A stretch of 64,000 bases of DNA from Escherichia coli (GTDB lineage: Bacteria > Pseudomonadota > Gammaproteobacteria > Enterobacterales > Enterobacteriaceae), in NCBI RefSeq assembly GCF_003334385.1, contig NZ_QOWN01000020.1; one strand, given 5' to 3'. Below are positions 12,746 to 41,149 of the stretch, piece after piece (the stretch's first letter is position 1; each line of letters opens with the position of its first letter). Below the pieces are notes generated by a model. That model saw only the letters and a list, made by a program, of their open reading frames with translations, did no database searches and was not told the DNA's origin. The position numbers and the translations under genes are program-made.

Positions 12746-12761
12746 TAGCGATTCAGAGTTC

Positions 12762-12786
12762 AAGGCCTTCTCCTGGAGAAGGCCTT
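12762..12786. terminator. Hairpin between convergent ilvC and ppiC (likely bidirectional terminator)
   Basis: AAGGCCTTCTCC-TGG-AGAAGGCCTT perfect stem between the two stop codons. Confidence 0.6.
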
Positions 12787-12790
12787 GCTA

Positions 12791-34144: not shown

Positions 34145-35530
34145 ATGGCAGATAACAAACCAGAGCTACAGCGTGGGCTGGAAGCTCGACATATCGAACT
34201 CATCGCCCTGGGGGGCACCATTGGCGTCGGCCTGTTTATGGGGGCCGCCAGTACCCTGAAATGGGCCGGGCCATCCGTATTGTTGGCCTATATCATCGCC
34301 GGGCTGTTCGTCTTTTTCATCATGCGTTCAATGGGCGAAATGTTGTTCCTCGAACCGGTTACCGGTTCGTTCGCCGTTTATGCGCATCGTTATATGAGCC
34401 CGTTCTTTGGCTATCTCACCGCCTGGTCTTACTGGTTTATGTGGATGGCGGTGGGGATCTCTGAAATCACCGCCATTGGCGTTTATGTCCAGTTCTGGTT
34501 CCCGGAGATGGCGCAGTGGATACCCGCATTGATCGCAGTGGCGCTGGTGGCGTTGGCGAATCTGGCGGCGGTGCGGTTGTACGGCGAAATCGAGTTCTGG
34601 TTCGCGATGATCAAAGTCACCACGATTATCGTGATGATTGTCATTGGCCTGGGCGTGATTTTCTTTGGCTTTGGCAATGGCGGGCAGTCGATTGGTTTTA
34701 GCAATCTCACAGAGCATGGCGGTTTCTTTGCGGGTGGCTGGAAAGGGTTCCTGACCGCTCTGTGTATTGTGGTGGCGTCCTACCAGGGCGTGGAGCTGAT
34801 TGGCATTACTGCCGGTGAAGCGAAGAATCCGCAGGTGACGCTGCGCAGTGCCGTAGGCAAGGTGCTGTGGCGGATCCTGATTTTCTACGTAGGCGCGATT
34901 TTCGTTATCGTCACCATCTTCCCGTGGAATGAAATAGGCAGCAACGGCAGCCCGTTCGTACTGACTTTTGCCAAAATCGGTATTACCGCAGCGGCGGGCA
35001 TTATCAACTTTGTGGTGCTGACGGCTGCGCTCTCTGGCTGTAACAGCGGCATGTACAGTTGCGGACGTATGCTCTACGCACTGGCGAAAAACCGTCAGTT
35101 ACCGGCGGCAATGGCGAAAGTTTCCCGTCACGGCGTACCGGTTGCGGGTGTGGCAGTATCTATTGCTATTCTGCTAATTGGCTCATGCCTGAACTACATC
35201 ATTCCCAATCCGCAGCGTGTGTTTGTCTACGTCTACAGTGCCAGCGTGCTTCCGGGGATGGTGCCATGGTTTGTGATATTGATAAGCCAGCTGCGTTTTC
35301 GGCGTGCACATAAAGCGGCGATTGCCAGCCATCCGTTCCGCTCAATCCTGTTCCCGTGGGCCAATTACGTAACAATGGCATTCCTGATTTGCGTTTTGAT
35401 CGGCATGTACTTTAATGAAGATACGCGTATGTCGCTGTTTGTTGGCATCATCTTTATGCTGGCGGTGACGGCGATTTATAAAGTTTTTGGCCTTAATCGC
35501 CACGGGAAAGCGCATAAACTGGAGGAATAA
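34145..35530 (+). CDS. yifK: Amino acid permease (APC family)
   Basis: 461-aa ORF with 12 predicted TM segments. Confidence 0.9.
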
Positions 35531-37618: not shown

Positions 37619-39274
37619 TTAGTCAGATTTAATCTGCGCGCGTGGTGGATATTTTTTCAGGATCTCCATATACGCGTGCATTTCGGTCTGTAGCGGTACA
37701 CCCATCGGAATATGGCGCACGCCGATGGAGTCGCTTTCCTGCGGATCGGTGTAGAGGTTAAACACCGACGATCCCGCCGTTTGCATTACTGTGCCGGTGA
37801 ATCCACCCTGATATCCGCTCTGGGTATAAGCGTAAGGTTGCTGAATCAGGACGTGATACTTGAACTCATCCATACGCACAGCAGCGAGTTTACCGTTGAG
37901 GAAGTAGTGCTCGGCCTTACGGTTAGACTGACCATTTGTTCCCAGGAAGAAGGATGTCTGGTCCACACCATCGATAAAGGTGGTTTTCGGCACTAAATTC
38001 GCCACTTTCGCTCCAGGATGCCCTGCCAGATCCAGCGCGGTAGGGAAGAGATCTGCCAGATCGACAATACCGTCAGATTTACGCGGTTGGATCATCCCTT
38101 TCCAGTAAACGAAAGTCGGTACGCGAACGCCGCCTTCCCAGGTCGAACCTTTCGCACCACGGAACGGGGTGCGTCCGTGCGGCGGTACTTCGGCTTCCGG
38201 TCCGTTATCGGAGGTAAAGACGATCAGCGTGTTATCAAGCTGACCGTTTTTCTCCAGTGTTTTATACAGATTAGCGAACACATCGTTCATCTCCACCATG
38301 CAGTCGCCATACGAGGTGCGTGCCGGAGAGCTACCCGCATATTTAGCGTTCGGGTAGTTATCGAAGTGACAGCCGCGAGTGCCGTAATAGAGGAAGAAAG
38401 GCTTATCGCTCTTCGCCATCTTGTCGAGGAACTTAACGCCATATTCCATCCAGCGTTGATCCAGATCTTCCATATATTTCGGCGTAATGTCGGCAATGGC
38501 CTGTTGTTCGCCGCCGCGCACTGCATGAACATCATCTTTGCTGAACGGTAATTGCTTGATGTATTCAGAACGGTCCGGACTCAGGGCCACTTCCGGATTG
38601 ACGTGAACGTCGCGCCATTCGGTGTACATATCAGACACCGAGTTAAAGCCACGGAAATCATCAAAGCCAACGTTCTGCGGCTGCGACTCTTTGTTTTCCC
38701 CCATATGCCATTTCCCGATAGCCTGGGTGACGTAACCTTGGTCGTGCAGCAATTGCGGCAGGGTGGTTAACCCTTGCAGACCTCCCGGTTGCCCGTACAT
38801 TGGCGGCATCAGAATGCCGTGGTGGATGGAGTATTGTCCGGTGAGAATGGTGGCGCGGGTTGGGGAAGAGCTTGGTTGAGAATACGCCGACGTTAAAATC
38901 AGCCCCTGGCTGGCAACTGCATCGATATCTGGTGTAGGGTTACCCACCGCCACGCCGCCACCGTTAAAACCGACGTCCATCCAGCCCACATCGTCCAGCA
39001 GGAAGATAACCACATTGGGCTTCTTACCGGTTTTTTTCTCAAGTTCTGCCAGCTTCTGCTGGGTTTCTTTATCCTGCGCCGGATGCTGCATTACTGGCAT
39101 CATGTTGTCGGCAATAGTGGTCGCCGGTTTAACCAGATACTGGTTTGGGTGATCGTATCCGGCAAAGCCTTTGCGTGCGGTGGCAGTTGACGGGGTATCT
39201 GCTGCGCTGGCCATGAGAGGAAGAGCGGCGGCGACAGCAACAACAAGACGTTTGGGTGAAAACGAAATTTCCAT
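37619..39274 (-). CDS. aslA: Arylsulfatase (periplasmic)
   Basis: 551-aa ORF with signal peptide and sulfatase motif. Confidence 0.9.
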
Positions 39275-39698
39275 GCAAAATGCTCCGGTTTCATGTCATC
39301 AAAATGATGACGTAATTAAGCATTGATAATTGAGATCCCTCTCCCTGACAGGATGATTACATAAATAATAGTGACAAAAATAAATTATTTATTTATCCAG
39401 AAAATGAATTGGAAAATCAGGAGAGCGTTTTCAATCCTACCTCTGGCGCAGTTGATATGTAAGGCAGGTTTATTATATCGCGTTGATTATTGATGCTGTT
39501 TTTAGTTTTAACGGCAATTAATATATGTGTTATTAATTGAATGAATTTTATCATTCATAATAAGTATGTGTAGGATCAAGCTCAGGTTAAATATTCACTC
39601 AGGAAGTTATTACTCAGGAAGCAAAGAGGATTACAGAATTATCTCATAACAAGTGTTAAGGGATGTTATTTCCCGATTCTCTGTGGCATAATAAACGA

Positions 39699-39905
39699 GT
39701 AGATGCTCATTCCATCTCTTATGTTCGCCTTAGTGCCTCATAAACTCCGGAATGACGCAGAGCCGTTTACGGTGCTTATCGTCCACTGACAGATGTCGCT
39801 TATGCCTCATCAGACACCATGGACACAACGTTGAGTGAAGCACCCACTTGTTGTCATACAGACCTGTTTTAACGCCTGCTCCGTAATAAGAGCAGGCGTT
39901 TTTTT
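39699..39905 (+). ncRNA. glmZ: Small RNA GlmZ
   Basis: Recognised GTAGATGCTCATTCCATCTCTTATGTTCGCC...; ends in hairpin GCCTGCTCCGTAATAAGAGCAGGCG plus T7. Confidence 0.85.
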
Positions 39906-39952
39906 ATGTGTCAGGAAGGCCCCGGAGGTGCTTGCCCCCGGGTGAGAAGGAA

Positions 39953-41149
39953 CTACTGTGGTGGGTTGTTCTGCAACGTTAACATCAAACCGTCGTGACG
40001 CATCGCTGCAGCTTCTTCCGGCTTGTGCAGTCTGTCCAGCGCGTCGGCAAGCCATGCGTAATCGTAGGCGTCCGGACGTTGTTTCAGCGCTGCGCGGAAG
40101 GCGAGCGATGCTTCCTGCCATTCTCCGTGCTTCATCAGTGACTGGCCCAGTGTGCTCCACAACAGCGGGCGATCGCCGACGTTTTTGATCTGCTGGCGCA
40201 GCACTTTTTCCAGCTGTTCCGGATTGTTGGTTTTCAGTCGAGGAATCGGCAGCAGTAGGCGATCGTCGTACTGGCGTTTCAGGCCATCGATGATAATTTG
40301 CTGGGCAGTATCATGATCGTCACATTCAATAAGATGTTCCGCCATTGCCACCTGCAACGCTACCTGATGACGCGTTTTCCGGCTTTGGTTTTTCCACCAG
40401 TTACGCAAACCTTCACTACCGTTATCGGCACGCGCCTGATCCATCAGGCCAATCCATGCCTGTTGTTCCAGCATTGCACGATGTTCTTCATCACCAACAT
40501 GGGCTTTCGCCATTGATGGGATGATATCCAGCAGAGAACTCCATGCACCTGTGCGGATATACGCCTGTTCCGCCAGACGTAATACTTCCGGATGGCGTGG
40601 CGTAACTTCCAGCAGCTTATCCACGCCGTGGCGTGCAGCATGGTTTTCATTACGGGCCAGTTGCAGACGTACACGGGTGATTTCTACCGGAATGGTGTCA
40701 TTGCCGGCCAGCTCCGCTGCGCGTTCCAGATGTTGGTTGGCGCGCGCTTCATCACCACGTTGTTGCGCGGCTTCGGCAGCCAGTAGATAGTTCACCACCG
40801 GTTGTTCAGCGTGATCGGCATTTTTCGCCATCAGCTTTTCAACTTGCTGATAATCGCCTTCCGCCAGTTTCAGCAGCGCCTGTTCGGTCTGCTTACGTGC
40901 ACGGCGACGCTTACGCCCGACAAACCACCCACGGGTGTGCGCGCCAGTGCGGAAGATCCGCCGCAGTAGCCACTCAATGGCAAACAGCACTACCATCGCC
41001 AGAATCAATATGATCGCCAGGCCCGTGACGCTGGTTTCGATATTGTAGTTGTCGGTCTGGATCAGCACATAACCCTGATGACCGGCAATCATCGGGCCAA
41101 CCACTATCCCCGCAATCAGCAACACAAAGAGTAATAACACTTTTAGCAT
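39953..41149 (-). CDS. hemY: HemY (TPR-containing inner membrane protein)
   Basis: 398-aa ORF with N-terminal TM helices. Confidence 0.9.
   Translation of the reverse strand: MLKVLLLFVLLIAGIVVGPMIAGHQGYVLIQTDNYNIETSVTGLAIILILAMVVLFAIEWLLRRIFRTGAHTRGWFVGRKRRRARKQTEQALLKLAEGDYQQVEKLMAKNADHAEQPVVNYLLAAEAAQQRGDEARANQHLERAAELAGNDTIPVEITRVRLQLARNENHAARHGVDKLLEVTPRHPEVLRLAEQAYIRTGAWSSLLDIIPSMAKAHVGDEEHRAMLEQQAWIGLMDQARADNGSEGLRNWWKNQSRKTRHQVALQVAMAEHLIECDDHDTAQQIIIDGLKRQYDDRLLLPIPRLKTNNPEQLEKVLRQQIKNVGDRPLLWSTLGQSLMKHGEWQEASLAFRAALKQRPDAYDYAWLADALDRLHKPEEAAAMRHDGLMLTLQNNPPQ

Follow-up and report, generated by a model that had tools for sequence, protein, structure and literature searches.

The intergenic DNA between the divergent aslA and glmZ genes of Escherichia coli contains a palindrome composed solely of A and T, and the locus raises the question of which of the two genes, if either, this palindrome serves. 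An earlier note on a 64,000-nucleotide stretch of an E. coli genome (contig NZ_QOWN01000020.1; referred to here as the window, with coordinates counted from its first nucleotide) had proposed that the palindrome is shared between the aslA and glmZ promoters and could be a binding site for a nucleoid protein or a dedicated regulator. The region is the known, well-studied glmZ locus of E. coli, and glmZ, its promoter and the dispensability of the DNA upstream have already been published. A 751-bp query around glmZ and the palindrome matches all 5426 complete E. coli genomes. The features of the locus are collected in Table 1.

Table 1. Features of the aslA-glmZ region, in window coordinates.
Feature	Coordinates	Strand	Remarks
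aslA CDS (arylsulfatase-like protein AslA)	37619..39274	-	ATG 39274..39272; ORF list; K-12 b3801 at matching position
aslA-glmZ intergenic spacer	39275..39698		424 bp, 32.5% GC; same sequence as K-12 MG1655
Short dyad GTCATCA-AAA-TGATGAC	39295..39311		possible aslA leader hairpin or operator; 21-37 bp upstream of aslA ATG
Inverted repeat ATAAATAAT (39361-39369) / ATTATTTAT (39384-39392)	39361..39392		variable 14-bp spacer; repeats I7/I19
Palindrome AAATAAAT-T-ATTTATTT	39378..39394		perfect 8-bp arms; -321..-305 from glmZ +1
Most conserved non-coding block ATCAGGAGAGCGTTTTCAATCCTACC	39416..39441		invariant runs 39416-39426 and 39428-39441, five Escherichia species
Second inverted repeat CAATTAATA-N7-TATTAATTG	39515..39539		perfect 9-bp arms; -184..-160 from glmZ
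Tandem 15-bp direct repeat TATTCACTCAGGAAG / TTATTACTCAGGAAG	39592..39621	+	family D1; 78-107 bp upstream of glmZ
glmZ sigma70 promoter	39663..39692	+	-35 ATGTTA (39663-39668), N15, extended -10 tggCATAAT (39684-39692); exact match to PMC3045617
glmZ small RNA gene including intrinsic terminator	39699..39905	+	Rfam RF00083, terminator scan, K-12 identity

The glmZ gene and its promoter

We found that glmZ is readily recognisable from its sequence and its terminator, just as the earlier note had reported. The gene matches Rfam family RF00083 (GlmZ_SraJ) with a score of 218.4 bits against a gathering score of 60, the match covers model positions 1-214 of 214, that is, the full covariance model, and 207 of 207 nucleotides are the same as in K-12 glmZ. 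A terminator scan places the stem at 39871..39900, followed by a T-run. The conserved position of glmZ is beside the divergently oriented hemCDXY cluster (PMC3045617), and in the window hemY (39953..41149, - strand) adjoins the gene, which places it in that neighborhood. On the other side, E. coli genome annotations name the divergent ORF aslA. In model match, K-12 sequence, synteny (divergent from aslA, by hemY) and terminator, the gene agrees with the GlmZ (SraJ/RyiA) system of RF00083; we observed no difference, and the window's gene is glmZ itself. Given this identity over all 207 nucleotides, the window copy probably has the properties that two reports describe for K-12 GlmZ (PMC4152352, PMC7073468). 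By Rfam match and terminator the gene is 207 nt long, as compared with 172 nt in the K-12 RefSeq annotation (2933..3104 of the K-12 locus, corresponding to window 39699..39870), which stops just before the terminator hairpin.

A side observation concerns the DNA downstream of glmZ. In E. coli R14, 1448 and the LS992180 strain (hits H27-H29), an ORF encoding a hypothetical protein of 196 aa lies between the glmZ terminator and hemY. In R14 this ORF occupies positions 2205..2795 of the extracted locus (L003), and the insertion point is directly after window position 39909. Two hydrophobic segments are predicted near the N terminus of the hypothetical protein, its C-terminal part is acidic, and it matched no NCBIfam or Pfam family.

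The E. coli glmZ promoter has been defined by mutagenesis as ATGTTA-N15-tggCATAAT, and mutation of either the -35 or the -10 element abolishes its activity (Gopel et al., Nucleic Acids Res 2011, PMC3045617). In the window this promoter ends 6 nt before glmZ +1, and five Escherichia species show no substitution in the blocks that carry its -35 and -10 elements (39661-39673 and 39684-39694). The E. coli glmZ fragment used by Gopel et al., -424..+32, takes in exactly the whole spacer, and a series of 5' truncations of it indicated that everything upstream of -40 is dispensable, with full activity retained, in plasmid lacZ fusions examined under standard growth conditions only (PMC3045617). Likewise, GlrR did not bind to the -424..+32 fragment, deletion of glrR or rpoN had no effect, and glmZ in E. 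coli was found to have one constitutive sigma70 promoter that is unregulated under the conditions tested (PMC3045617). Lying 270 bp away and beyond the -40 limit, the palindrome falls outside the glmZ promoter. The published truncations show that transcription from this promoter does not require it, at least for fusions on plasmids in standard growth, and the proposal that it is common to the divergent aslA and glmZ promoters is not supported.

Two other promoter assignments were considered and rejected. Shimada et al. listed a glmZ promoter, TTGAGA-17-GATGAT, that falls at 39330..39357 (+ strand) and an aslA promoter, TTAACA-18-TGTAAT, that falls at 39659..39630 (- strand); both are computational picks near a genomic SELEX peak (PMC3946193), neither matches the position of the real glmZ promoter, and the former lies 340 bp from the real glmZ start.

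Upstream DNA across enterobacterial glmZ loci

The GlrR/sigma54-dependent glmZ promoters of groups I and II have three TGTCN10GACA sites together with TGGCAC-N5-TTGCA at -24/-12 (Gopel et al. 2011, PMC3045617). We detected no GlrR-like site (TGTCN10GACA with at most one mismatch) in the 450 bp upstream of glmZ in the window and no sigma54 -24/-12 element upstream of the gene, where the best match has 5-6 mismatches, and inspection of the spacer by eye revealed no good IHF consensus. The window matches the group III promoter of the same study (Escherichia/Klebsiella), in which the GlrR, IHF and sigma54 elements have been lost, and does not differ from it in any respect that we noted. The extended -10 sequence TGGCAT (39684..39689) resembles the -24 half of a sigma54 promoter (TGGCAC), the -12 half of which is gone; such a relic fits the gradual loss of sigma54 dependence proposed by Gopel et al.

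We surveyed glmZ loci with a degenerate pattern for the glmZ 5' end and one genome per species, which yielded 120 loci, 110 of them with at least 300 bp of upstream sequence. Of the 110 loci, 69 combine two or more GlrR-like TGTCN10GACA sites with a sigma54 -24/-12 element, and 25 have neither GlrR-like sites nor a sigma54 element. Only in Escherichia, Kluyvera, Pseudocitrobacter and one Enterobacteriaceae genome (L112) does aslA adjoin glmZ (12 loci). These 12 loci have the lowest upstream GC content, 31-35%, and are the only ones among the 110 that are so AT-rich; the remaining loci of the sigma70-only type, which include Klebsiella, Raoultella and some Citrobacter, have an upstream GC content of 46-53%. 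Very AT-rich upstream DNA is thus found only where aslA is the neighbor, and the AT-rich spacer therefore belongs to the aslA side. In the window, the description of the roughly 420 bp upstream of glmZ as strongly AT-rich proved accurate (424 bp, 32.5% GC), with individual 100-bp windows of the spacer falling to 24-28% GC between flanking genes of about 50-51% GC. This survey shows that the AT-rich spacer is tied, functionally and evolutionarily, to aslA and not to glmZ.

In the genera that carry this AT-rich DNA on the aslA side, glmZ has lost its ancestral GlrR sites and its sigma54 promoter. Compared with group III as it was defined in 2011, Kluyvera, Pseudocitrobacter and L112 are also without GlrR and sigma54 elements, and the survey of 110 loci adds Kluyvera and Pseudocitrobacter to the class of sigma70-only promoters that are independent of GlrR. 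Since sigma70-only loci occur in further genera, the class is broader than the two genera named at that time. The glmZ loci of several Citrobacter and of Raoultella, Pluralibacter and Superficieibacter are likewise without GlrR-like sites and sigma54 elements and carry an extended -10 of the form TGTGnnATAAT; loci of this kind include L004, L026, L042, L047, L062, L086 and L094, among others.

Repeats and conservation within the spacer

The palindrome is 17 bp long (8+1+8, with one central base) and lies 104-120 bp upstream of the aslA ATG. The earlier note had quoted a 15-mer from it, AATAAATTATTTATT (39379..39393), and had called it near-perfect; its existence and position are as described, and its 8-bp arms are in fact perfect. 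When the aslA-glmZ spacer was shuffled 5000 times with its dinucleotide counts preserved, 3.4% of the shuffles contained arms of 8 bp or longer separated by 0-1 bases, and 12% did when the separation could be 0-10. A palindrome built solely of A and T in a spacer that is 67% A+T is thus only marginally unexpected. Seven perfect palindromes of comparable size, including this one, are present in the 64-kb window; the others with arms of at least 8 bp are 12761..12787, 34351..34369 and four more, and the longest, CAAGGCCTTCTCC-T-GGAGAAGGCCTTG (12761..12787), has 13-bp arms.

The spacer contains further repeats. When each combination of centre and spacer length (0-20) with arms of 8 or more was counted separately, there were 6 inverted repeats, which overlap one another, compared with 0.35 in shuffles; the source of this excess is the recurrence, in either orientation, of ATAAAT(A/T)AT-like words within 39358-39396. 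The inverted repeat at 39515..39539 is longer than the reported palindrome and went unmentioned in the earlier note. Arms of its length arise in 2.4% of shuffles, and its symmetry is gone outside E. coli, where 4-7 of the 9 pairs remain. The short dyad at 39295..39311 sits just upstream of the aslA Shine-Dalgarno sequence. A two-sided change in E. albertii (39296 T>A together with 39310 A>T) preserves its pairing, and one-sided changes in other lineages break it down to 5-6 of 8 pairs. The copy number of the 15-bp direct repeat differs among E. coli strains (MMC-J-0091 has one copy), and the direct-repeat region is poorly conserved in other Escherichia species.

Conservation of the palindrome was assessed first within E. 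coli and then beyond it. Nine E. coli, drawn from identity bands of 100%, 98%, 96% and 94%, all have the same 17-mer, although about 9 of the 34 positions that flank it within a 51-mer vary. In representatives of five Escherichia species, AslA is 97-98% identical and the spacer only 75-82%. Of the 17 columns of the palindrome, 15 do not vary across these species, compared with a spacer mean of 10.4, and 16% of the 17-bp windows in the spacer are at least as conserved. Conservation above the spacer average, together with invariance in the sampled E. coli, leaves room for sequence-specific constraint. As for the pairing itself, E. coli and E. albertii retain all 8 pairs; the three remaining Escherichia species have 7/8, 7/8 and 6/8, with no compensating change. 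In Pseudocitrobacter the palindrome is absent, with 3 of 8 pairs in the aligned sequence, even though flanking blocks align: the aslA-proximal leader and the blocks around 39434-39503 are alignable and the palindrome region is not. Kluyvera spacers are AT-rich but cannot be aligned. The earlier note had held that its reading would be refuted if the palindrome were unconserved in close relatives that conserve the glmZ and aslA promoters, and on this count the reading is partly refuted: the glmZ -35 and -10 do not vary in the five Escherichia species, the symmetry of the palindrome is eroded in three of these species, and Pseudocitrobacter is without the palindrome.

The overlapping repeat ATAAATAAT-N14-ATTATTTAT behaves differently from the palindrome. 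All 9 of its pairs are kept in 6 sequences from the five Escherichia species, with a variable 14-nt spacer, and invariant runs cover 39361-39368 and 39384-39392. On comparison of these sequences, it is the ATAAATAAT/ATTATTTAT dyad, and not the 8+1+8 palindrome, that appears as the conserved symmetry in Escherichia. Three blocks of the spacer (39416..39441, 39455..39474 and 39483..39491) are invariant in the five species and better conserved than the palindrome. The first of these is unique in the window, and its distal end, from about 39434, is alignable in Pseudocitrobacter. None of the three blocks contains an ORF, an Rfam hit or a known site, and they are candidates for aslA regulatory DNA.

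Several other readings of the spacer were rejected. A nested dyad of about 110 bp with conserved ends invites comparison with a MITE or other repeated element; the 124-bp stretch concerned is single-copy, with a median of 1 place per genome in 5423 E. coli genomes, and its arm is unique in the window. Two small ORFs, 39371..39493 (+ strand, 40 aa) and 39417..39554 (- strand, 45 aa), are both interrupted by stops in sister Escherichia. A DnaA-box-like sequence, TTATCCAGA (39391..39399), has one mismatch to the DnaA-box consensus and is not conserved in sister species.

H-NS binding and the role of the palindrome

H-NS prefers AT-rich DNA with TpA steps, and a high-affinity H-NS motif, TCGATAAATT, was reportedly described by Lang and colleagues in 2007. 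The spacer has 14 matches to this motif (at least 7 of 10 positions), 6 of which fall within 39358..39405. Shuffled spacers have 9.7 +/- 3.1 matches, and 11% of them reach 14. In genomic SELEX, the aslA-glmZ spacer was classed as type-A, bound by RpoD holoenzyme, and it was marked as holding one of 987 H-NS SELEX sites (Shimada et al., PLoS One 2014, PMC3946193, Table 1); this H-NS evidence was obtained in vitro and has the resolution of the whole spacer. We found no H-NS footprint or ChIP peak at the palindrome itself in the literature searched. Thus, a nucleoid-protein site, as suggested in the earlier note, is plausible for the spacer as a whole on the basis of the SELEX listing (PMC3946193), and no such site was found at the level of the palindrome. 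The spacer shares a GC content of 32.5%, the SELEX listing and clustered ATAAAT-type motifs with H-NS-bound AT-rich spacers of the xenogeneic-silencing type. It differs from H-NS-silenced regions in that aslA itself is not AT-rich and the motif density is not above that of shuffles.

Less is on record for the aslA side. The literature searched, including the supplements of PMC4782308, PMC10301672 and PMC3064808, yielded neither a mapped aslA promoter or transcription start nor an in vivo H-NS peak in the spacer, and the literature searched contained no report of H-NS dependence of aslA. The adjacent gene aslB, which has its own, different promoter, is 13-fold up in an hns mutant (PMC2984483). 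There is no good sigma70 consensus match near aslA, which would fit a weak or activator-dependent aslA promoter.

Since the palindrome lies in DNA that is dispensable for glmZ, it is most likely just part of the H-NS-bound spacer in front of aslA. With moderate confidence, we regard it as a low-complexity, low-information portion of the H-NS-bound, AT-rich DNA on the aslA side, with no role in glmZ transcription. According to this reading, glmZ would be transcribed from its single sigma70 promoter, which on the published evidence does without the remaining ~380 bp of the spacer. The palindrome would be no discrete operator, representing one of several overlapping copies of ATAAAT(A/T)AT-type low-complexity motifs that run in both orientations through 39358..39396. 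Together with the rest of the spacer it may contribute to cooperative binding of H-NS, by which the presumably weak aslA promoter region would be silenced in laboratory culture, and the strong extended -10 glmZ promoter at the far end would continue to fire.

The palindrome could, on the other hand, have no function whatever and be a chance by-product of an A+T-only stretch that persists through close relationship among lineages and slow mutation at A/T sites, a possibility that we take seriously while judging it unlikely overall. The frequency of such arms in shuffles, the seven comparable palindromes in 64 kb, the uncompensated decay of the symmetry in other Escherichia and the absence of the palindrome from Pseudocitrobacter and Kluyvera are all what would be expected of a chance structure. 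So is the tolerance of the spacer to natural IS insertions and to engineered ones. In E. coli 65COLEC (L127), an ISApl1-family transposase gene starts a few bases after the palindrome, at about window position 39398; strain C9 carries an IS1 between 39200 and 39950 (hit H1); and the match of E. coli PSS-16 (hit H30) to the query is confined to the glmZ-side 300 bp, with the aslA-side half missing. The natural insertions fit the practice of several laboratories, for which the aslA-glmZ spacer, or aslA itself, serves as a neutral site for integration. Complete lack of function is less easily reconciled with the 15 of 17 columns that are invariant in five species, above the spacer mean, with the constancy of the 17-mer in E. 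coli while about 9 of 34 flanking positions vary, or with 6 inverted repeats compared with 0.35 in shuffles, although these counts overlap. A dedicated dimeric factor controlling aslA through the 8+1+8 palindrome or the ATAAATAAT-N14-ATTATTTAT dyad, about 105-140 bp upstream of the ATG and possibly in response to a sulfur-source or host signal, is a further reading, which we consider improbable. The palindrome shares a perfect 17-bp dyad and a plausible distance upstream of a gene with the palindromic operators of dimeric bacterial transcription factors, and the position would suit an upstream activator or repressor site. Moreover, the N14 dyad keeps 9 of 9 pairs in all of the Escherichia sequences, the 17-mer is invariant within E. 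coli, and expression of aslA in E. coli K1 has been reported to respond to conditions, with RpoE and LL-37 as the indirect route (PMC9147696). Unlike such operators, the palindrome is composed entirely of A and T, has a low information content, exceeds chance marginally, does not maintain its 8+1+8 symmetry across Escherichia, and has no known cognate regulator and no regulator gene nearby, the neighbors being aslB, hemY and hemX. No regulator site was found here in the full-text literature searched, and Pseudocitrobacter and Kluyvera, which do conserve aslA together with the leader blocks closest to it, do not conserve the element.

An effect at the RNA level was also weighed. The palindrome, together with the nested dyad of about 110 nt at 39329..39437 that encloses it, might fold into a structured RNA, carried by a long 5' leader of aslA or by some unannotated transcript, that acts on aslA once transcription has begun. 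RNAalifold predicts a long stem (39329-39350 / 39416-39437) that encloses an inner ATAAAUAAU/AUUAUUUAU stem, the arms of the nested dyad are the most conserved blocks of the spacer, the alignment-fold energy is far below that of column shuffles (z of about -4.4), and two pairs show two-sided changes. Nevertheless, we rejected a structured or riboswitch-like leader (39322..39445) and judge any such RNA very unlikely: single-sequence folding is ordinary, with z of -0.46 in the aslA sense and -1.51 on the + strand against dinucleotide shuffles, covariation is negligible (a term of only -0.52 kcal/mol, with nearly all pairs invariant), no transcription start on record places 39329..39437 in an RNA, and Pseudocitrobacter is without most of the element. 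Rfam families other than that of glmZ gave no hit in the spacer even at E<=1, the only others being chance-level hits inside glmZ. The reading of the earlier note, in which one site would co-regulate both genes, draws on the divergent arrangement of aslA and glmZ about a common spacer and on the argument that H-NS filaments can in principle spread across the whole of it (PMC3946193). The 270 bp that separate the palindrome from the glmZ promoter, the full activity of fusions truncated to -40 and the constitutive expression, unregulated under the conditions tested (PMC3045617), render it exceedingly improbable.

It is conceivable, though doubtful, that 39278-39334, the ATAAATAAT-N14-ATTATTTAT dyad and 39416-39441 together constitute an undescribed cis-regulatory module of the cryptic sulfatase gene aslA in Escherichia, which would act as a set of operators or as a leader structure. 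The palindrome itself adds little to a locus at which glmZ, its promoter and the dispensability of the upstream DNA were already published. On the aslA side, however, the gene is cited as virulence-associated in E. coli K1, and the conserved blocks of the spacer are starting points for work on the aslA promoter and its regulation.
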